From Bacteroidota bacterium (GTDB taxonomy: Bacteria; Bacteroidota; Bacteroidia; Bacteroidales; JACABE01), in the NCBI GenBank assembly GCA_026391675.1, contig JAPLDQ010000019.1, forward strand, positions 87,780 through 151,779: 64,000 bases of DNA. Direction: 5' to 3'. The notes under the pieces were generated by a model that was not told the DNA's origin, did not search any database, and worked only from the letters and a program-made list of their open reading frames with translations. Positions 52,638-62,468 of this stretch are shown here, in pieces (the first letter of the stretch is position 1; the number at the start of each line of letters is the position of its first letter). A program made the position numbers and the translations under genes.

Positions 52638-53507
52638 TTAAGATTTATAGCAATCCAAAACCACAAAAGGCACCTCCATTTGTAAACCGCCATTAGTTTC
52701 AGCTATTTCATTCAGCTTATTCTCACATATTGACATTATTTCATCCGCATTATCAGTGGATTCCATTATTTTCATCCAATGATTTTTAAATGCAGTTTTA
52801 ATAAAATGATGTTGCAGAAATGCAGTTCCGTCCAGAAACTTCATCACATAATTTTCTTCATAAATATGACGGATGCTGAAGCCGGCATGCTCAATCATTT
52901 CAATCTGTTGCTTTATGCTTTTCCTTTTTTGACTGATATGCTGAATGATAGCTTCAATCACTGAATAATAGCCTTCTTCGAGTAAAAGTTCTGTCAGGCA
53001 TTCGTAAAAGAGCGAAAATGTTCCCGGCAGGTTGGCTGTAATGACTAATTGCGCATTTTTTCCTGCGGTCCTGTATGCTTCTTTTAAAACAAGATCAGCA
53101 TTTTCTGTATTATTGATGCCATTATTTGAAACAATAAGATGGAAGATTTCATCATCGAAGGGCATTTCTTCGGCTTTACAATCGAAACAGCGAATGTTTT
53201 TCAACTGCATAGCTGCTGCTTTTGCTTTTAAACGGGAAATGGCAGCTTCTGAAGGATCTATACCATAACAAGTGGATGATAAACCCAGACGCTGAGAAAT
53301 TTCCAGCAGGGGGAATCCTGCACCACAGCCTATATCGAGTACATTTATATTCTTTTTATATTGTAACACATCCAGTAACTTCAGGCCGAAGGGTGCTGAC
53401 CACAATGATAATTCATCAGTTAATCCAGACATTATTTGTGTATTTTCAGCGATGCTTTCGCTGTTGAATACATTTATATCATTTAGATTTGGCTCTTGTG
53501 TTTGCAC
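52638..53507 (-). CDS. Class I SAM-dependent methyltransferase
   Basis: SAM motif I 'VLDIGCGAGFPLLE' and post-I 'YGIDPSE'. GTG start at 53507. A perfect TAGTTTTG -7 box lies on the minus strand at 53531-53524. Confidence 0.8.
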   Translation of the reverse strand: MQTQEPNLNDINVFNSESIAENTQIMSGLTDELSLWSAPFGLKLLDVLQYKKNINVLDIGCGAGFPLLEISQRLGLSSTCYGIDPSEAAISRLKAKAAAMQLKNIRCFDCKAEEMPFDDEIFHLIVSNNGINNTENADLVLKEAYRTAGKNAQLVITANLPGTFSLFYECLTELLLEEGYYSVIEAIIQHISQKRKSIKQQIEMIEHAGFSIRHIYEENYVMKFLDGTAFLQHHFIKTAFKNHWMKIMESTDNADEIMSICENKLNEIAETNGGLQMEVPFVVLDCYKS

Positions 53508-53867
53508 GTTAACATTTTTTTTACAAAACTACATAATCTATTGTTATCAAATAAACATTTGCTGTTCAATGACGCATTTTTTTTGTTAAATGACGAAAAT
53601 AAGGTATTGAACAATGATTAAATTCCGGTAAAATCAAAATTAGCTTAGTAGTTTGTGCCACAATTGAAGTGAGACTGTGAGAAATGTTTTCAGAAATTTA
53701 GTATTTATAACTGCTTTACTTGATAAGTTTTAATTCCAGCATCTTGGACAACCAATATTTTTATTAAAATGCACTTAAAGGTCTTAAAAAACTAATAGAT
53801 TGATATCGCTTTCATTTTACTATTATATAAATTAAATTTTATTAAAATCATTTCTAATTTATAAATA

Positions 53868-54116
53868 GTGCTGGTGCATTAACTTTTTATTTATATTTAT
53901 AACACGTTGATAACAAAATATATATAAGTATTCTTTGATTTTTTGAATTGAATTGACTTTTAGTTTAGCATTAAATTAAAGTGCAAGATTATGAATTCAG
54001 TAAGTATTTTTTGTTCAGCTATTAGTTTAAATAGAACTACTTACAAAAATACAAGTCAATTAAAATTTCAGAGAACAATAGGATATATTTAACTATTAAT
54101 TTTAACGCACCAGCAG
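53868..54116. other. Nested inverted repeats defining a ~250-nt potential long hairpin or structured RNA within an ORF-free AT-rich leader
   Basis: Outer arm TGCTGGTGCATTAA (53869-53882) pairs with TTAACGCACCAGCA (54102-54115) at 13 of 14 positions. Middle arm AATTGACTT (53951-53959) pairs with AAGTCAATT (54053-54061), 9 of 9. Inner arm GTAAGTA (54000-54006) pairs with TACTTAC (54038-54044), 7 of 7. Confidence 0.45.
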
Positions 54117-54495
54117 TAATTTATAAAAACAAATAACTTAAAAAATAATTATGAAATTAATCCTTCTAATTTTATTTTATTAATTTTGGATTGATAAAAT
54201 TATTATTAATTCTTATTTGATATAATGGATCTAACAAATAAACTAATAAATATTATTTATTTCTATTAGATTTTGAAATAAGTATTTAAAAAAAATAGAA
54301 ATTTAACAATAATAAAGACATTACTATTAATTAATTACAGTTACTCTAAGGGAAATAATCTATATTAAAGTTTTTATTTATTATTTTTTTGTATATTATT
54401 AAGTTAATTAAATTAAGATTTAATATCTAAAATTGTAATTTTATTAATTTTAATCTACAAAATGTATTAATATTAAAAAAATCTAATTTTATAAC

Positions 54496-54503
54496 TATTT
54501 TTG
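54496..54503 (+). promoter_or_regulatory. Candidate -7 promoter box (TAnnTTTG) for the ATPase/HNH-like operon
   Basis: 'TATTTTTG' ends 13 nt upstream of the ATG at 54517. Confidence 0.4.
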
Positions 54504-54516
54504 TAAAAAACATGAT

Positions 54517-55905
54517 ATGAAAATTCATAAAATAAGTCTAAATAATTATAATCAATTTAATAATTTAGAAATTGATTTAACTTATCCTAAAGGACATAAA
54601 AAAGAGGGAAAACCTTTGGATAAAATTTGTTTTATTGGACAAAGTGGTACAGGAAAAACAAGTCTATTAAGATTAATAAAGTACTTTATTACTAATAAAA
54701 GAGGAATAGGGACAGGGGTTTCATTAGATCCAATTGAAAAAGATAAAGTTAAAATGATAATGAGTTTTGATAAATTTTTATATGAAAAATTTGTTGAACC
54801 AAAATCTTTTCTAATTCATAATATAACAGACAAAAGCGATGATTCTTGGTTTTCTGAATGGCAAATAGCATTATCAAATCATTTCTCAACATATAAACCG
54901 ATATTAATTAATTTCCCAACTGAAAGATTAGTAAATAAGAATGAAGAGGTTATAAATGATGAAATTATCAAAAATTCTGACGAAAAGAAGAATAAAAGAA
55001 TTAAATATTTAGAAGACTTAAAACCTGGAGAAATAGTTGATTTTGCATTTGAAGATAGCTCAAAGGCATGGGATTTAGTTCTAAGTGATATAAAAAAACA
55101 TCAATCAATAGATTTAGAATGGAGAAGTAAAATTTCAGAAATTATTTTAAAAACAAACTCAGAACCGTCTGATTTTGAAAAGATAAATAGAGAATTTCAA
55201 AATTGGCTAACTAAAAACCCCAATCCACTAGATTTACTAGCAAAAGAAATAAATAAAATTCTTATAGAGTTTGGTATAAAAATCAAAACTGATATTGATA
55301 AAGAATCAATATTCCACATAGGAAGTATTCTATTGCAGACTTTAGATGGAAAAACAATAGATAGGGATTTTTGGAGTACAGGAACAAAGCAAATAATTGA
55401 CACAGCAATCCCATTAATTGAAATAAAACCTAAAAATGCAATAATTCTTATTGATGAACCAGAACGTTCATTATATCCAAATCTTCAACAAAGAATAATT
55501 GATTTTTATACAAATCTTGGAAATAATTGCCAATTCTTTTTTGCAACTCATTCACCAATTATAGCTTCAGCATTTGATCCTTGGGAAATAATTGAATTAA
55601 AATTTGATGAAAGTAAAACAAATGTTATTCAAGAAAAGAATTATCTAAATGAGCGTCATATCGATAATTATACTGTTTTTCCCAAATATTTAAAATGGGA
55701 TGGTATTTTAATGAAACTTTTTGATTTAACTGATGAAGGGAATAATAAATATAGACAAGAAGAATTACAGAAAGTTGCATCTTTAAAAAATGAATTAAAT
55801 GAATTAAAAAATAAAAGAAAAAATAAAGGTGCTGCTTTTGAGAAAAAATTAAATGAATTTATTAAACTGAAAAACAAAGTTGGATGGGATGAAAAAACTG
55901 AATAA
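54517..55905 (+). CDS. ptuA: ABC/AAA_21-type P-loop ATPase, PtuA-like (Septu-type defence ATPase candidate)
   Basis: N-terminal 'IHKISLNNYNQFNNLEIDL' (SMC/RecF-like head start). Walker A 'GQSGTGKTS'. Walker B plus D-loop 'ILIDEPERSLYP'. 'FFFATHSPIIAS' is the ATHSP signature of AAA_21/OLD-like ATPases. C-terminal coiled coil. It overlaps the next gene by 17 nt. Confidence 0.65.
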   Translation: MKIHKISLNNYNQFNNLEIDLTYPKGHKKEGKPLDKICFIGQSGTGKTSLLRLIKYFITNKRGIGTGVSLDPIEKDKVKMIMSFDKFLYEKFVEPKSFLIHNITDKSDDSWFSEWQIALSNHFSTYKPILINFPTERLVNKNEEVINDEIIKNSDEKKNKRIKYLEDLKPGEIVDFAFEDSSKAWDLVLSDIKKHQSIDLEWRSKISEIILKTNSEPSDFEKINREFQNWLTKNPNPLDLLAKEINKILIEFGIKIKTDIDKESIFHIGSILLQTLDGKTIDRDFWSTGTKQIIDTAIPLIEIKPKNAIILIDEPERSLYPNLQQRIIDFYTNLGNNCQFFFATHSPIIASAFDPWEIIELKFDESKTNVIQEKNYLNERHIDNYTVFPKYLKWDGILMKLFDLTDEGNNKYRQEELQKVASLKNELNELKNKRKNKGAAFEKKLNEFIKLKNKVGWDEKTE

Positions 55906-56527
55906 ATCGTTACAATTATCCACAAAATTTAGTTATTGGTATTCAAAAAATAAAACTAAAGATTACAAATCTACCAATGATCCTTTTTATTATGACGTTT
56001 TATATGAGTTATTAATAATTCAAGAGGGTTTATGTGCTTATACTGAAATCAGAATGATTGATGAAAAATCATTAGAAACATTAAAATCAGGATTTAATGA
56101 CGGTAAGTATTCTATTGATTTTAGACCTCAAACACCTGCACAAATTGAACATTTTTCAAAATTAAAGAAGAAATCAAATGGATGGGATTGGAATAATTTA
56201 TTTGCAGTTTATATTGATATAAATCACAAAAAAAACTATTTAGAGGATAGGTATGGAGTTTCATCTATTTTAAAACCCGATAATCCAAGTTATGATCCTT
56301 TAAAATATTTAATGTACGATTCTTCTAATCATATATTTTTCCCAAATTCAAAATTAAAAAAACCATTACAAGATAAAGTTTCAAAAATGATAATAGTTTT
56401 AGGAATAAATAATGATTTTATTAAAATGCAGAGAAGAGAATATATTAATTCAATAAAAGAGAAAGAATATTTTTTGGAAAAGAAATTGGTTATCAATCAG
56501 TTTATTACTGCTTACAATATGATTTAA
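55889..56527 (+). CDS. ptuB: TIGR02646/PtuB-like HNH-family protein with degenerate zinc ligands
   Basis: The HNH core pattern is 'GLCAYTE' (canonical C-A-Y-C-E), 'QIEHFSKL' (I-E-H-F), 'WDWNNLFAV' and 'INHKKN'. The tail 'ILKPDNP...LKYLMYDSSNHIFFPNS...VLGINNDFIKMQRREYI' matches the family's C-terminal '...LNLN..L...R'. The ATG at 55889 is preferred over the TTG at 55880. Confidence 0.6.
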   Translation: MKKLNKSLQLSTKFSYWYSKNKTKDYKSTNDPFYYDVLYELLIIQEGLCAYTEIRMIDEKSLETLKSGFNDGKYSIDFRPQTPAQIEHFSKLKKKSNGWDWNNLFAVYIDINHKKNYLEDRYGVSSILKPDNPSYDPLKYLMYDSSNHIFFPNSKLKKPLQDKVSKMIIVLGINNDFIKMQRREYINSIKEKEYFLEKKLVINQFITAYNMI

Positions 56528-56568
56528 AATATTTTTTACGTATTTATTAATATACTCCCAAATAATAC

Positions 56569-56760
56569 CTAATCATCTCTTTCAGGTCTTTCATCAACAG
56601 GTCTTCCATGAATTGGCCAATCATTTTGGCTTTTCTTTATTTCATTATCACGTCGAGCTTGGTCTTCCCTTTGCCTTCTTTCTTGTTCCTGTCGTTGTCT
56701 TTCTTGTTCAGCTCTTCTTCTTTGTTCTTCTTCAATTCTTTTTTGATCTTCATTACTCAT
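56569..56760 (-). CDS. 63-aa highly charged Glu/Arg/Gln-rich (ER/K single-helix-like) peptide
   Basis: 'RIEEEQRRRAEQERQRQEQERRQREDQARRD'. It lies 12 nt downstream of the 3-TM gene on the same strand. The low-complexity composition means a chance ORF cannot be excluded. Confidence 0.45.
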   Translation of the reverse strand: MSNEDQKRIEEEQRRRAEQERQRQEQERRQREDQARRDNEIKKSQNDWPIHGRPVDERPERDD

Positions 56761-56772
56761 AACTTAAAATAT

Positions 56773-57240
56773 TTAAAGTGAAATAATCATAAAAACAACT
56801 AATATAATAATTGCAAAAATTAATAACAATAAACTTAATCCATTTAAAATATGAGTAAGTTTATTATAAATACATTTTTTACATTCGATTTCGATTTGAT
56901 CTTCTTTTAATTCTTTACCTTTTTCTTTTTTAATAATATTTTTTATTAATTGTACCTCAAATTTATTCGCATAATATGATGTAACCTGTGAAAGTAAATT
57001 TGACACTATTGATAAAGTAAATAATATCCATGAAATTTTTAACATTAAAAAATTCACATTAGGTTTACTTAACAAAATATCTTTTACAAAGCCCATTGAT
57101 AGGGCTAAACCACCACTAGATATCGAAATAATTAATATATCAAATCGATTAAGTGAATATTTAAGATTATCTTTTGTTGCATCTAAATGGGCTTCTAAAT
57201 TAACAATATATTGACTATTTTTATTTGATATTTCTTTCAT
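56773..57240 (-). CDS. Small 3-TM membrane protein (SLATT/DUF4231-like topology; possible membrane effector)
   Basis: N-terminal soluble helix, TM1 'FDILIISISSGGLALSMGFV', TM2 'ISWILFTLSIVSNLLSQVTSY', a charged helix, and a C-terminal TM 'GLSLLLLIFAIIILVVFMIISL'. The similarity to SLATT is topological only. Confidence 0.6.
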   Translation of the reverse strand: MKEISNKNSQYIVNLEAHLDATKDNLKYSLNRFDILIISISSGGLALSMGFVKDILLSKPNVNFLMLKISWILFTLSIVSNLLSQVTSYYANKFEVQLIKNIIKKEKGKELKEDQIEIECKKCIYNKLTHILNGLSLLLLIFAIIILVVFMIISL

Positions 57241-57409
57241 ATTTACAAAATCTATTATAAATTTTCAAATCAATAACAAAAATAATACTTATTTATAGCA
57301 ATAATTAAAATGTTGATAACTTATATTATTAATTTTTTGCTATAAACAAGAATTATTGATATTTAGATAAGTTTTTTAAGAATGTTTTGAATTGTTAAAG
57401 TAAAAAAAT

Positions 57410-57886: not shown

Positions 57887-57905
57887 TTTTATACTGTTTT
57901 TGCCA

Positions 57906-58061
57906 CTAAGGCACTAAGACACAAAGGAAATTAAATAAAAATCTTTTTGTCTTAAATGTATTATTTAGCTAATGCTTTTATTAATAATAAGACTTAGTGC
58001 CTTTGTGGCAAGACCAAATTTGTGTCTTTTTGGCAAAAAACTTAGTGTCTTAGTGCCTTAG
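57906..58061. repeat. Palindromic REP-like element in the czc leader
   Basis: CTAAGGCACTAAGACAC (57906-57922) and GTGTCTTAGTGCCTTAG (58045-58061) are perfect 17-bp inverted repeats. The interior carries related 'CTTAGTGCCTTTGTGGCA' and 'TTTGTGTCTTTTTGGCA' units. Confidence 0.85.
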
Positions 58062-58079
58062 TTGCTAATAATAAAAATC

Positions 58080-61000
58080 ATGATAGAACATATTATAAAA
58101 TTTTCAATCAAAAATAAATTCGTTATCGGATTATTCATTGTGGCTTTAATCGGATGGGGAAGCTATTCGCTGATCCGTCTGCCCATTGATGCCATACCCG
58201 ATATTACCAATAACCAGGTACAGGTAATTGCACTGGCTCCTTCGCTGGCGGTGCAGGAAGTAGAAAGTTTCATTACTGCTCCAATAGAGGTGTCTGTTGC
58301 CAATATACCCAATATTGTGGAGCTGCGTTCTATTTCGCGACTTGGTTTATCGGTAGTTACCATTGTTTTTAAAGATAATGTTGACCTATACTGGGCGCGG
58401 CAACAGTTAAACGAACGTTTAAAGGAAGCCGAAGAAGCCATCCCTCCCGGACTGGCCAAGATTGAGCTTGCCCCTGTTTCGTCAGGATTGGGTGAGATAT
58501 TCCAATACCGCCTGGCAGTAGCAAAAGGTTATGAAGACAAGTATAATCCAATGGAACTGCGTACCATACAGGACTGGATTGTACGCCGCGAAATGCTGGG
58601 AACTCCGGGCATTGCTGATATCAACAGCTATGGTGGTTTTGTCAAGCAATATGAGATAGCCGTAAATCCTGAAAGACTCAGAGGGATGAACCTTAGTCTT
58701 ACAGATATCTTTACCGCACTCGAAAAGAACAATGAGAATACAGGCAGTGCCTATATTGATAAAAAACCCAATGCCTATTTTATACGCGGTATCGGTTTGG
58801 TAAAAACACTGGCTGATATCGAAAAGATAGTGGTTAAAAACAATACATCGGGGATTCCTATATTAATCCGTGATATTGCCAAAGTGGAATATGGCAGTGC
58901 TACCCGTTACGGCGCTTTTGTGGTTGACACATCAGAAGCTGTGGGCGGTGTGGTTATGATGCTGAAAGGAGCCAATGCCCATGAAGTGATAGAAGATGTT
59001 CAGGAACGCATTAAAGCCATACAAAAATCATTACCAAAAGCTGTAAGAATTGAACCTTATTTAAACCGTTCCGACCTTGTTGGACGTGCCATTGGTACGG
59101 TTTCAAAAAACCTTATTGAAGGGGCTTTAATAGTAATTTTTATTCTTGTTCTTCTGCTGGGAAATATGAGGGCCGGTCTCATTGTGGCTTCTGTGATTCC
59201 GCTTTCCATGCTCTTTGCTATTTCACTGATGAATCTGTTCGGAGTATCGGGTAATCTGATGAGCCTGGGTGCCATTGATTTCGGATTAATTGTAGACGGT
59301 GCTGTTATCATCGTCGAAAGCGTGGTGCACAGGATATCGAAAAGCAAGACACATCACTTAGGTATTGAACGGCTTTCGCAACAGCAAATGGATGAGAATG
59401 TATTTGAATCAGCCAAACGCATGATGAGTTCAGCTACTTTCGGACAAATCATCATCCTTATCGTTTATCTTCCTATTATTGCGCTGGTAGGCATTGAAGG
59501 AAAGATGTTCCGCCCGATGGCCCAGGTAGTGGCTTTTGCACTGCTGGGTGCTGCTATACTTTCCCTGACTTATGTTCCTATGGCTTCCGCACTATTTCTG
59601 AGTAAAAAGACTGTATCTAAAGCAAATTTATCGGACAAACTGATGGAATTGATTACTAAAGCTTTTAATCCTGCAATTGCTTATGCATTAAAACATAAGA
59701 TGCAGGTTTCATTGGCAGCTATAGTATTATTTATTCTGAGTCTTTTGCTGTTCACACAATTAGGAGGCGAATTTATTCCTCAGCTCGAAGAAGGAGATCT
59801 GGCAGCAGGTGTTATGACACTACAGGGCGGGTCATTGTCAAATACAGTTGATCAGGTAAAAAAAGCAAATAAGATATTACTTGACAATTTCCCTGAAGTT
59901 AAACATGCAGTCTGTAAAATAGGTGCAGGAGAAATCCCTACTGACCCCACTCCTATGGAAACCGGTGATTATATTATTACACTCAAGGATAAAAGTGAAT
60001 GGACTTCTGCTAAAAGCCGTGAAGAACTGGTAGCAAAAATGGAAGATAAACTGGTAACACTGGCAGGGGTTAAATTTGAATTCCAGCAACCTATACAAAT
60101 GCGATTTAACGAATTGATGACAGGGTCAAAACAGGATGTAGCCATTAAAATATTTGGCGATAATCTTGGGACACTGGCTGATAAAGCAGCAGAAGTAGAA
60201 AAAATCATTCAGAAAGTTGAAGGAGTAGAAGATATTAATGTGGAGAAACTCACAGGACTGGCTCAGGTTCAGATTAATTTCAACCGCGACAGGCTTGCAC
60301 AATACGGACTTTCTGTGGATGATGGCAGTAAAATATTACGTTCTGCTTTTGCAGGGAGTCAGGCAGGTGTGGTTTATGATGAAGAAAAACGATTTGCACT
60401 GGTAGTGCGTCTGGATAAAGATTACCGCCAGAGTATAAAAGATGTAAAAAGCCTAACCCTTGCCCTGCCCAATGGCGGACAAATTCCTTTTGAACAGGTG
60501 GCGGATATCAGCATACAATCCGGACCGGCTCAGGTTTCAAGAGAAGATACCAAACGAAGGATAACCATTGGATTTAATGTCCGAATGCGGGATGTGGCAA
60601 GTGTTATTGAAGATGTTAAAACCAAAATTGATCAGCAGATTATATTACCCAGTGGATATTATGTATCCTATGGCGGACAGTTCAAAAATCTGGAAGCTGC
60701 CAGAAACAGACTGGCCATTGCTGTTCCTGTGGCTTTATTATTGATTTTTGTATTACTATATTTTACTTTTCATTCCGTTAAACAATCCCTGTTAATTTAT
60801 ACTGCAGTTCCCATGTCAGCCATAGGCGGTATTATCGCACTCTGGCTTAGAGGAATGAATTTTTCCATATCAGCCGGTGTTGGTTTTATTGCTTTGTTTG
60901 GTGTGGCGGTACTCAATGGCATCGTATTGATTGCCGAATTTAACCGGCTGGAAAAAGAAGGTATCACAGATATCAACGAACGCGTGCTTAAAGGATTGAA

Positions 61001-62468
61001 AACCCGTCTGCGTCCTGTAATCATGACGGCTGCCGTTGCTTCGCTCGGATTTTTACCCATGGCATTATCAACTTCAGCCGGTGCCGAAGTACAGAAACCT
61101 TTGGCAACTGTTGTAATTGGTGGGCTTATCACAGCAACATTACTTACATTGCTTATACTTCCTGTTTTCTATATTATTTTCTCCAACTATAAATTCAGCA
61201 TTTCATTTAAAAGCAAAACATCCAAAGTAATTAGCATAGTTATATTAGTATTTATGACAACTTGCTGTTTTATGAATGTAAAGGCACAGGAAATAAAGTA
61301 TATCAATTTGCATGATGCGATACAAATGGCGCTGGACAGGAATTTAAATCTCCGTTCTTCCGCTTATGCCGTTGACGAACAAAAAGCGATGAAAGCTGCT
61401 AGCTGGGATATCAGCAAAACCAATATTGAACTGCAATACGGGCAATTTAATTCTTATGAAAAAGACAATGGGTTAACAGTATCCCAGTCCTTTGCATTTC
61501 CAACGGTATATATGATGCAAAGCAAACTGGCCAATGCCAGGGTAAAAAGCAGTGAATGGCAGTTGAAAAGTGCACAACTTGAAATTACCACTCAGCTTAA
61601 GCAACTTTACTGGCAATTGGCTTATCTGTTCTCAAAACAAAAATTACTGATCTATCAGGACAGTCTTTTTTCAAGTTTCCAACGGGCAGCTGAATTAAGG
61701 GCTAATTCGGGTGAAACCATTAAACTTGAAATGATTACGGCACGTTCGCAAAGTATGGAAGTTAAGAACCAGCGTTATCAGGTAAATGCTGATATAGGCA
61801 TTTATTTACGTAAACTGAGGACATTACTGAATACTGATATTTTAGTTTATCCGGCTGATATCATACTTAAACGGATTAATTACACAGTAGTTCCCTTAAC
61901 TTCTGAAATAGCCAATAATCCATCTCTGGCTTATATGCAGCAACAGATAGAGGTTTCGCAAAAAGAAAAACAAGTCGAAGTAAACCGCAGCTTACCCGAT
62001 CTAAGTATTGGCTATTTCAGCCAAACCATAAGGGGTACGCAGGAGGTAAATGGCCTTCCCCGTAGCTTCGGTGCCGGTGACCGTTTTACCGGCGTACAAT
62101 TGGGTATCTCCATTCCGCTTTGGTTTATGCCTTATAAAGCAAAAATAAAGTCGGCTCAGATTCAGGAGAATATGGCCAGGACAGATGCTGAAAATTACAA
62201 GAATACACTATCAAATAATTATCTTTCCTTATTGGATGAATATGCAAAATATCTCGGGAGTATTAATTATTACGAACAGCAGGCAGTTCCTGAAGCTGAG
62301 TTAATCATTGAACAAGCCAGCCAGAGTTATAAAGCCGGTGCAATGGATTACCTGGAATATATACTGAGTCTGAACCGTGCGCTGATTATTAAACAAAATC
62401 AACTGGATGCCATTAACAACTATAATCAAACCGTTATCAACATTGAGTTTGTTTGCGGGAAGTTGTAA
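58080..62468 (+). CDS. czcA: CusA/CzcA-family heavy-metal efflux RND pump fused in frame to a TolC/CzcC-like outer-membrane factor
   Basis: 'MIEHIIKFSIKNKF' is a typical CzcA start (the ATG at 58080 is preferred to the TTG at 58062). The RND region has 12 TM segments and runs to about aa 1040. 'KSKTSKVISIVILVFMTTCCFMNVKAQE' is signal-peptide-like, beginning near 61210. 'LHDAIQMALDRNLNLRSS...' opens a TolC-type region with two-repeat helical content running to the stop at 62468. Confidence 0.85.
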   Translation: MIEHIIKFSIKNKFVIGLFIVALIGWGSYSLIRLPIDAIPDITNNQVQVIALAPSLAVQEVESFITAPIEVSVANIPNIVELRSISRLGLSVVTIVFKDNVDLYWARQQLNERLKEAEEAIPPGLAKIELAPVSSGLGEIFQYRLAVAKGYEDKYNPMELRTIQDWIVRREMLGTPGIADINSYGGFVKQYEIAVNPERLRGMNLSLTDIFTALEKNNENTGSAYIDKKPNAYFIRGIGLVKTLADIEKIVVKNNTSGIPILIRDIAKVEYGSATRYGAFVVDTSEAVGGVVMMLKGANAHEVIEDVQERIKAIQKSLPKAVRIEPYLNRSDLVGRAIGTVSKNLIEGALIVIFILVLLLGNMRAGLIVASVIPLSMLFAISLMNLFGVSGNLMSLGAIDFGLIVDGAVIIVESVVHRISKSKTHHLGIERLSQQQMDENVFESAKRMMSSATFGQIIILIVYLPIIALVGIEGKMFRPMAQVVAFALLGAAILSLTYVPMASALFLSKKTVSKANLSDKLMELITKAFNPAIAYALKHKMQVSLAAIVLFILSLLLFTQLGGEFIPQLEEGDLAAGVMTLQGGSLSNTVDQVKKANKILLDNFPEVKHAVCKIGAGEIPTDPTPMETGDYIITLKDKSEWTSAKSREELVAKMEDKLVTLAGVKFEFQQPIQMRFNELMTGSKQDVAIKIFGDNLGTLADKAAEVEKIIQKVEGVEDINVEKLTGLAQVQINFNRDRLAQYGLSVDDGSKILRSAFAGSQAGVVYDEEKRFALVVRLDKDYRQSIKDVKSLTLALPNGGQIPFEQVADISIQSGPAQVSREDTKRRITIGFNVRMRDVASVIEDVKTKIDQQIILPSGYYVSYGGQFKNLEAARNRLAIAVPVALLLIFVLLYFTFHSVKQSLLIYTAVPMSAIGGIIALWLRGMNFSISAGVGFIALFGVAVLNGIVLIAEFNRLEKEGITDINERVLKGLKTRLRPVIMTAAVASLGFLPMALSTSAGAEVQKPLATVVIGGLITATLLTLLILPVFYIIFSNYKFSISFKSKTSKVISIVILVFMTTCCFMNVKAQEIKYINLHDAIQMALDRNLNLRSSAYAVDEQKAMKAASWDISKTNIELQYGQFNSYEKDNGLTVSQSFAFPTVYMMQSKLANARVKSSEWQLKSAQLEITTQLKQLYWQLAYLFSKQKLLIYQDSLFSSFQRAAELRANSGETIKLEMITARSQSMEVKNQRYQVNADIGIYLRKLRTLLNTDILVYPADIILKRINYTVVPLTSEIANNPSLAYMQQQIEVSQKEKQVEVNRSLPDLSIGYFSQTIRGTQEVNGLPRSFGAGDRFTGVQLGISIPLWFMPYKAKIKSAQIQENMARTDAENYKNTLSNNYLSLLDEYAKYLGSINYYEQQAVPEAELIIEQASQSYKAGAMDYLEYILSLNRALIIKQNQLDAINNYNQTVINIEFVCGKL

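Follow-up and report, generated by a model that had tools for sequence, protein, structure and literature searches.

The DNA analysed here is a 64,000-nucleotide (nt) stretch of a Bacteroidota bacterium genome (GenBank assembly GCA_026391675.1, contig JAPLDQ010000019.1, positions 87,780 to 151,779; hereafter the window). On its minus strand it encodes a 155-amino acid (aa) protein with three transmembrane (TM) helices, which we refer to as 3TM, followed by a peptide of 63 aa. The two genes are a real pair that has been co-inherited across a deep divergence, with the partner open reading frame (ORF) present in 61 of 63 distinct loci from two clades, and the module they form is autonomous, mobile and ancient. 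The original prediction, made from the letters of the window, had proposed the two ORFs as a cassette; they prove to be genuinely co-conserved, with the positions and the 12-nt gap given below.

56773..57240, minus strand: 3TM gene, 155 aa, ATG start (ORF list)
56761..56772, minus strand: intergenic spacer of 12 nt, ATATTTTAAGTT (sequence)
56569..56760, minus strand: partner peptide gene, 63 aa, ATG start, Glu/Arg/Gln-rich type (ORF list, alignment A3)

Conservation of the pair across two clades

Related loci were gathered by exact-protein look-ups and a scan of genomes in the Genome Taxonomy Database (GTDB), and their ORFs were called mechanically. In the window's clade, each of the 29 distinct loci with enough downstream sequence has the partner ORF after the 3TM gene and in the same orientation. 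These partners are 49-69 aa long (107 aa in L020), and the gap is usually 2-12 nt, a spacing that fits co-transcription of the 3TM and peptide genes. The hosts are Bacteroidota and comprise Bacteroidales, Flavobacterium, Pedobacter, Maribellus, Prolixibacteraceae, Saprospiraceae and Winogradskyella; two more metagenome-assembled genomes in this clade bear the labels Clostridia and Rhizobium.

The sister clade was obtained from a metagenome scan with sub-alignment A6, which was built from more remote 3TM proteins that have the TM1 motif R-I/M-D-L-L-I-I-S-I-S-G-A-G-I-Y in common. Its loci are metagenomic. No co-directional partner ORF is found in these loci. Here, an opposite-strand ORF of 28-60 aa converges on the 3TM gene in 32 of 34 distinct loci, and its stop usually falls ~10-11 nt inside the 3' end of the 3TM gene. 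Most of these peptides are Pro/Thr/Arg/Lys-rich (e.g., MGKQPTRPSKPSTPNSPSRPQQPRSPQPGSPRTDQNKGIGRPPTTKNPNK), some are Ser/Asn/Gly-rich or Glu/Arg-rich (L071, L083), and they end in K-G-x-G-R-P-P-K-K or near variants thereof. As a control, small ORFs in 204 kilobases (kb) of sister-clade loci were surveyed: only 28 of 409 contain the motif, and in 24 of these 28 cases the ORF is the one located at the 3TM stop. The codons for G-R-P fall beyond the overlap and are variable in their third position (AGA/AGG, CCT/CCA), which points to selection for the peptide rather than for the membrane gene.

A neighbour-joining tree of the 3TM proteins separates the co-directional and convergent arrangements cleanly. 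L071, a convergent locus with a Glu/Arg-rich peptide, is sister to the co-directional clade. The convergent 3' overlap makes the two sister-clade mRNAs complementary at their ends, and by analogy with known overlapping pairs this antisense overlap could provide a means of regulation in that clade.

The partner peptide

On the sequence evidence, the 63-aa ORF is a genuine gene and no chance ORF. At the local base composition, an open frame of 63 codons would arise with a probability of ~0.003. Stronger evidence is that essentially every related locus has a homologous small ORF carrying the same C-terminal motif. This conservation dispels the concern, raised at the outset, that the ORF might be unconserved in homologous loci and hence a chance frame.

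The window's peptide consists to 56% of Glu, Arg and Gln, has a net charge of -2 and contains 13% hydrophobic residues. In alignment A3, which comprises 24 peptides from the window's clade, G52 and P59 do not vary at all and R58 is almost fixed (at least 90%). Across partners, the conserved C-terminal motif reads K-G-x(3-6)-R-P-x-K. Its counterpart in the window is encoded as follows:

56572..56607, minus strand: codons of the C-terminal motif, G52-R-P-V-D-E-R58-P59-E-R-D-D (alignment A3; motif also in convergently encoded peptides)

The rest of the peptide varies widely. In L025, L035 and L038 the bodies are Ser/Asn/Gly/Lys-rich instead of Glu/Arg-rich and the ending is retained (...KKGLGAGDRPKR, ...EKGQGSGNRPKRD). 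Taken over the whole set of peptides, net charges span -2 to +15, proline counts 0 to 23 and hydrophobic residues 4 to 17% of the sequence; what stays constant is the size, the extreme hydrophilicity and the C-terminal motif. The original prediction had stressed the Glu/Gln/Arg composition of the peptide, as typical of a single stable helix. A Glu/Arg-rich helix as the defining feature of the partner is not supported, since homologues are Pro-rich or Ser/Asn/Gly-rich and only the C-terminal G...RP motif is conserved.

A search of 5.8 billion proteins with the A3 profile returned only 21 matches, all of them 49-71 aa long and annotated as 'hypothetical', and in each of the three cases looked up the peptide gene immediately follows a 3TM gene of 148-154 aa. 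The 63-aa product of the window is missing from a collection of 15 billion proteins and has thus seemingly been reported by no gene caller. An AT-hook reading of the G-R-P core was rejected, as ten peptides representing every composition type gave no Pfam AT_hook match at E ≤ 10. The window's motif also has acidic flanks (DERPERDD), unlike the consistently basic flanks expected of an AT-hook.

The 3TM protein

Relatives of 3TM numbered 49 in a word-indexed search. Exhaustive searching of 1.84 billion cluster representatives (50% identity) with HMMER yielded 732 matches at E ≤ 1e-3 and 110 at E ≤ 1e-10, and the best 150 matches listed are mostly stand-alone proteins of ~140-180 aa (range 83-210). 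The 155-aa protein has no family match in Pfam, NCBIfam or PADLOC, searched with the window's proteins, or in PHROGs, searched with eight family proteins. A Foldseek comparison of the 3TM model with PDB and BFVD gave nothing below E 0.2, and the best match of the family profile to PDB sequences, at E 0.22, is no credible relative.

Alignment A1 contains 74 diverse 3TM members, in which Y28, D34, L36, N81, S84, N133 and S136 are near-invariant; close relatives additionally fix Q85, K53 and D54. AlphaFold supplied with A1 predicts three long helices (residues 6-58, 65-106 and 115-154) with a predicted local distance difference test score (pLDDT) of 92.5 and a predicted template modelling score (pTM) of 0.80. 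Hydropathy peaks at about residues 33-51, 61-87 and 129-155. Helices and peaks together bear out the membrane layout that had been claimed for this protein. Family-wide, the N-terminal part carries on average 7.1 Lys and Arg residues and loop 2 carries 8.3, against 0.3 for loop 1 and 0.4 for the C-tail, which has a mean length of 3.2 residues. From this strong positive-inside pattern and the hydropathy, we predict a topology with the N-terminus in and the C-terminus out. The TM helices were placed using the alignment, AlphaFold and hydropathy:

57067..57141, minus strand: TM1, residues 34-58, Ser/Gly-rich (ILIISISSGGLALSMGF), with conserved D34 at the cytoplasmic end
56977..57048, minus strand: TM2, residues 65-88, with conserved N81-L-L-S84-Q85 near the cytoplasmic end
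56785..56856, minus strand: TM3, residues 129-152, strongly hydrophobic, with conserved N133/S136 at the cytoplasmic end, followed by only ~3 residues

In the model, the cytoplasmic halves of the helices probably form a stalk and the membrane halves a three-helix transmembrane bundle. The polar cluster of Y28, D34, N81, S84, Q85, N133 and S136 is predicted to be located at the cytoplasmic face of the membrane.

The 3TM gene of locus L073 appears broken. The break is a scaffold gap of Ns, and a pseudogenised gene was thus ruled out.

Genomic context of the cassette

Neighbours were annotated from the two nearest large ORFs on each side and pooled over loci; the figures below are pooled counts and not a per-locus score. 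The sets comprise 94 proteins from 28 loci of the window's clade and 67 proteins from 22 loci of the sister clade (161 proteins from 50 loci). These neighbour scans place the cassette typically among defence and mobile-element genes, in agreement with the surroundings suspected originally, and the module prefers defence islands and prophages.

All-against-all clustering over 30 loci detected no third conserved gene and gave only a Type IIG cluster (4 loci) and one small cluster. Recurring adjacent ORFs of ~260-305 aa are mutually unrelated. The only recurrent neighbour in the window's clade is a Type IIG/IIL restriction-modification enzyme, which is encoded directly upstream of the 3TM gene and on the same strand in five loci with the following gaps:

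L029 / L076-79: 1 nt
L033: 3 nt
L030: 8 nt
L016: 12 nt
L005: 27 nt

These enzymes have three architectures (full MmeI; Eco57I with TaqI_C; Type ISP_C) and occur on three branches of the 3TM tree. An integrase is encoded just upstream of the restriction gene in L076, which suggests a mobile unit of restriction enzyme and cassette. Other neighbours in the window's clade include a KAP NTPase, HepT/MNT, a SLATT_5 protein, a C5 methylase, RteC, IS1595 and housekeeping genes. Sister-clade neighbours include Type IIG enzymes (3), Type I restriction-modification proteins (2), PtuA (2), AriA-like ATPases (3), TIR/bSEFIR proteins (2), DUF4238, AbiJ and PDC-M01A (2), together with integrases and IS110/IS1595.

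Some copies are associated with phages. L082 is a prophage copy accompanied by terminase and portal genes. In the prophage-like loci L081 and L008, the 3TM gene closes a block composed of an endolysin and two small ORFs, with the endolysin 0.9-1.2 kb upstream. In L081 (4544-6438) it lies 0.9 kb upstream on the same strand and matches a PHROG at 2e-40. The order in L008 (4236-6441) is GH108 enzyme, two ORFs, 3TM gene and integrase, and one of the intervening ORFs encodes a lipoprotein-like 265-aa protein ending in ...ILRF. The layout of L008 and L081 suggests a possible connection with lysis cassettes. In L072, a GH108 gene is found 5 kb from the 3TM gene. The 3TM family has no match in the plasmid or GenBank phage collections and is rare in IMG/VR (5 contigs).

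The AT-rich island of the window

In the window, the 3TM/peptide pair is arranged tail-to-tail with a PtuA/PtuB pair (Septu). All four genes lie inside an island at ~53500-57400 with a GC content of 15-27%, versus 33-43% in the flanks. The PADLOC PtuA/PtuB matches and the GC values confirm the setting noted earlier, tail-to-tail with an ATPase/HNH pair in an AT-rich island. The surrounding features are:

52638..53507, minus strand: ORF of 289 aa, flank on one side of the island (ORF list)
54517..55905, plus strand: PtuA gene (PADLOC PtuA 4.4e-65)
55880..56527, plus strand: PtuB gene, TTG start called (PADLOC HNH_I-A 1.6e-18, PtuB model 1.1e-13; NCBIfam PtuB 8.5e-15)
57241..57409, minus strand: intergenic region upstream of the 3TM gene, presumed promoter site
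58062-62468: 1468-aa ORF taken as CzcA-like, which with the HYC_CC_PP gene before it forms the other flank

The region 57241..57409 separates the 3TM gene from the divergent HYC_CC_PP/CzcA operon. It contains a 29-nt inverted repeat (57281-57309 / 57329-57357) whose arms are 83% complementary and 19 nt apart. This repeat, upstream of the 3TM gene, could be an operator or could be chance in AT-rich DNA. No consensus promoter was detected, as a sigma-70-type scan scores no better than shuffled sequence in the AT-rich island, and the bipartite Bacteroidetes pattern TTTG-N17-21-TAnnTTTG has zero matches near the locus. An Rfam scan of the locus gave no match, and neither flanking direct repeats nor tRNA genes were found at the island borders.

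The ptuA and ptuB genes overlap by 26 nt (55880-55905). The best matches of PtuB are retron-associated HNH models (PADLOC HNH_I-A, NCBIfam retron Ec78 PtuB). Upstream of ptuA, positions 53508-54516 comprise ~1 kb of non-coding DNA with a GC content of 15-23% and without an Rfam match; this region has no ORF of at least 150 aa, hence no evident reverse-transcriptase gene. The island's only terminator-like hairpin (GGCCAATCATTTTGGCT followed by a T-run) is on the plus strand at 56615-56631, within the 63-aa ORF and ~90 nt beyond the end of ptuB. Transcription of ptuAB is thus likely to continue into the 3' end of the oppositely oriented peptide gene. Two plus-strand ORFs at 56608-56781 (57 aa) and 56613-56762 (49 aa) are antisense shadows of the GAA/AGA-rich peptide gene and not genes. 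Beyond the island, the region 57899-58068 between the HYC_CC_PP gene and the 1468-aa ORF contains repeated CTTAGTGCCTT units and 24-28-nt inverted repeats. Judged by its length, the 1468-aa ORF looks like a CzcA-type resistance-nodulation-division (RND) pump fused to an outer-membrane-factor domain.

Proposed function and alternatives

We tentatively propose, with somewhat less than even confidence, that the cassette is a peptide-controlled membrane-damaging module of the toxin-antitoxin-like or abortive-infection type. In such a module, the membrane protein would oligomerise and become a membrane-permeabilising or depolarising effector, with an action akin to that of holins, RexB or SLATT effectors but no homology to them. 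The peptide, presumably cytoplasmic and compositionally free in its body, would have K-G-x(3-6)-R-P-x-K as its functional part. Through this C-terminal motif it would bind the conserved polar cluster of 3TM and hold the protein inactive or gate it. Upon phage infection or host shut-off, the peptide would be lost, titrated or displaced, and the freed effector would cause cell death or arrest. The module may often serve as a second line or back-up behind a co-transcribed restriction enzyme. Peptide-3TM binding, toxicity, the direction of regulation and the anti-phage role are what we infer for this model.

A membrane effector is favoured by the confident three-helix model, the strong positive-inside pattern, the Ser/Gly-rich TM1, the conserved polar residues at one face and the stand-alone nature of family members of ~150 aa. 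A defence role is favoured by Septu in the window's island, the Type IIG enzymes upstream in five loci, the other defence and mobile neighbours, the prophage copies and the precedent of SLATT proteins (PMC9226505). For the small partner, the suggestion that it acts as a regulator or antitoxin still appears to be the most plausible reading.

Several observations weigh against this proposal. Searches of Pfam, NCBIfam, PADLOC, PHROGs and Foldseek matched 3TM to no known effector, holin or toxin family. The span of peptide net charges, from -2 to +15, makes a single binding mode not obvious. The neighbour annotation is pooled and not scored per locus, and several cassettes stand alone amid housekeeping genes (purE, dxs, adk/obg). 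In two fusions, P0090 (L072:6001-6627) and P0145, each on one contig, the 3TM protein is in frame with the partner peptide (...VNLNS-MSDKDKNK...KKGQGAGDRPKRDK); the peptide is joined after TM3, which would place it in the periplasm, contrary to the model. These may be rare natural fusions or frameshift artefacts. AlphaFold of P0090 without an alignment reached a pLDDT of 60 and is uninformative. Because both fusions are singletons and the P0090 model is uninformative, they were set aside as evidence on topology.

Other explanations can be weighed against the same evidence. The original prediction raised the possibility that the cassette and the adjacent PtuA/PtuB constitute one four-gene Septu-like system. 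The pairs do adjoin within one AT-rich island, and the ptuAB terminator-like hairpin is situated within the peptide gene, but the pairs are convergent and not co-transcribed, and the cassette is found with many unrelated systems and without PtuAB in nearly all other loci. The PtuA and PtuB models are not among the 25 PADLOC families most matched by the neighbour proteins of the window's clade. Two of the 67 sister-clade neighbour proteins match the PtuA model, and phmmer with the window's PtuA and PtuB gave one weak match only across loci L001-L071. The co-occurrence that had been suggested as a check thus holds for the two ORFs with each other and rarely extends to PtuAB-like pairs. We conclude that the cassette is independent of Septu and that a four-gene system, which we consider extremely improbable, is essentially excluded. 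A prophage module for lysis timing or an accessory function, in which 3TM is holin- or antiholin-like, the peptide is its regulator and chromosomal copies including the window's are remnants or domesticated, also strikes us as improbable. It draws on the sister-clade 3TM genes ~1 kb downstream of a same-strand endolysin (L081, L008), on the lipoprotein-like ORF and integrase that follow GH108 in L008, on the more distant GH108 gene of L072 and on L082, which is a true phage. Against this stand the lack of any PHROG match, holin families included, the lack of a match in the GenBank phage collection and the mere five contigs in IMG/VR. Most loci, the window among them, are without phage genes and adjoin restriction or other defence genes. 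Moreover, the C-tail of ~3 residues is predicted outside, whereas holins typically have a charged cytoplasmic tail, and prophages also carry moron or defence genes beside the lysis cassette.

To superinfection exclusion, in which an inner-membrane protein blocks DNA injection or uptake without killing (as do T4 Imm, P22 SieA and Sie2009-type proteins) and the peptide is accessory, we assign a similarly low probability. A small inner-membrane protein without an enzymatic domain that is carried by prophages and defence islands would suit this role. However, known exclusion proteins act alone and here a peptide partner is nearly always present; the conserved 3TM residues face the cytoplasm, not the periplasm where the injection machinery arrives; and no homology to Sie families was found, a single SieB match at E=0.01 among 74 members being noise. 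It is unlikely, in our judgement, that the pair has no immunity role at all, whether as a purely selfish addiction pair serving to stabilise islands or as a stress-related or hydrophilin-like pair associated with the membrane. The copies that sit alone among housekeeping genes, the resemblance of the peptides to disordered hydrophilic small proteins and the lack of a sensor domain would be in keeping with this. The patchy distribution, the AT-richness of the window's island relative to its flanks, the restriction enzymes that recur upstream in operon-like positions and the many immediate neighbours that are defence or mobile-element genes argue in the other direction.

Returning to the membrane-damaging module, we speculate further that peptide-gated membrane effectors are widespread in Bacteroidota. 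They would pair a motif-locked 3TM, serving as a portable 'second-line' suicide switch behind Type IIG and other defences, with a peptide body that perhaps senses phage factors or proteases or serves them as a decoy, and would be antisense-controlled in one clade; this broader picture is conceivable, if doubtful as a whole. If the proposed function holds, the cassette is a new, compact, abundant immune or toxin module for a phylum with a poorly explored defence repertoire. The family comprises at least 732 clusters at 50% identity and is annotated in none of the libraries searched. Its control would be unusual as well, with a partner fixed only in a C-terminal motif of ~10 residues and a body that is Glu/Arg-, Pro- or Ser/Asn/Gly-rich. 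The recurrent operon-like link to Type IIG enzymes suggests a case of layered defence. Annotation pipelines can miss the partner peptide, given that the window's product was uncalled and the sister-clade gene overlaps the membrane gene on the other strand.

Comparison with known systems

The topology of 3TM had been likened to SLATT/DUF4231-type effectors. SLATT proteins are small stand-alone membrane proteins with 2-3 TM helices and cytoplasmic helices, and are highly mobile accessory pore-forming effectors recruited beside many different defence systems (PMC9226505). With three TM helices and a cytoplasmic three-helix stalk, 3TM is compatible with this loose description (PMC9226505), which is non-discriminating. 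Homology is not supported by the profile searches. The window protein has no match at E ≤ 1 to the SLATT/DUF4231 models (PF18181, PF18183, PF18184, PF18186, PF18160, PF14015) and 0 matches at E ≤ 1 in PADLOC, which includes SLATT-type effectors. Among the 74 diverse members, Pfam gave no SLATT match at E ≤ 0.1, and one DUF4231 match at E=0.018 is noise. The best hhalign probability of A1 against 128 neighbour proteins, including the SLATT_5 protein (Pfam 1.4e-39), was 1.2%, in a comparison whose sensitivity is limited because the targets are single sequences. Membership in SLATT/DUF4231 was rejected on these grounds. In its genomic behaviour the cassette resembles SLATT proteins, being found beside Type IIG restriction enzymes as well as Septu and further systems. 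It differs in the absence of sequence-profile similarity and of an association with nucleotide signalling or reverse transcriptases: SMODS/SLOG nucleotide-signalling genes, reverse transcriptases, RADAR and CBASS are absent among the top families of the 161 neighbours. Furthermore, 3TM comes with its own micro-peptide partner, whereas SLATT proteins are without one.

As we propose it, the cassette resembles lambda RexA/RexB and holin/antiholin pairs in having a small multi-pass inner-membrane protein that can kill or depolarise the cell and is kept in check by a second product. Those pairs are likewise carried by prophages, and some cassette relatives are near endolysin genes. They differ from it in that there is no homology, and the N-in/C-out topology of the cassette protein leaves no cytoplasmic C-tail. 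RexA is a folded sensor and an antiholin is an N-terminally extended isoform, whereas the cassette partner is a low-complexity peptide of 42-69 aa. Regarding holins in particular, 3TM has no PHROG match, the window has no endolysin and the charged cytoplasmic C-terminal tail is not present; the endolysins near the 3TM genes of L081 and L008, with two ORFs between, are suggestive only.

Like toxin-antitoxin and abortive-infection systems, the cassette consists of two small adjacent co-inherited genes with a patchy mobile distribution and variable flanks, and its compact two-gene module has operon-like gaps of 2-12 nt in the window's clade. Type I toxin-antitoxin pairs such as fst/RNAII and bsrG/SR4 are 3'-overlapping convergent genes, a geometry for antisense control. 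The sister-clade partners likewise converge with overlapping 3' ends. Type I toxins are <60 aa and have one TM helix, whereas 3TM is ~150 aa with three, and the overlapping partner of the cassette encodes a conserved peptide and not RNA alone. Keyword literature searches found no description of this pair, which does not prove that none exists. In kind, a small membrane effector with a small regulator in defence islands is known. What is new is the protein family itself, a micro-peptide that combines an unconstrained body with a constant C-terminal motif, and the alternation of co-directional with overlapping-convergent gene arrangements.

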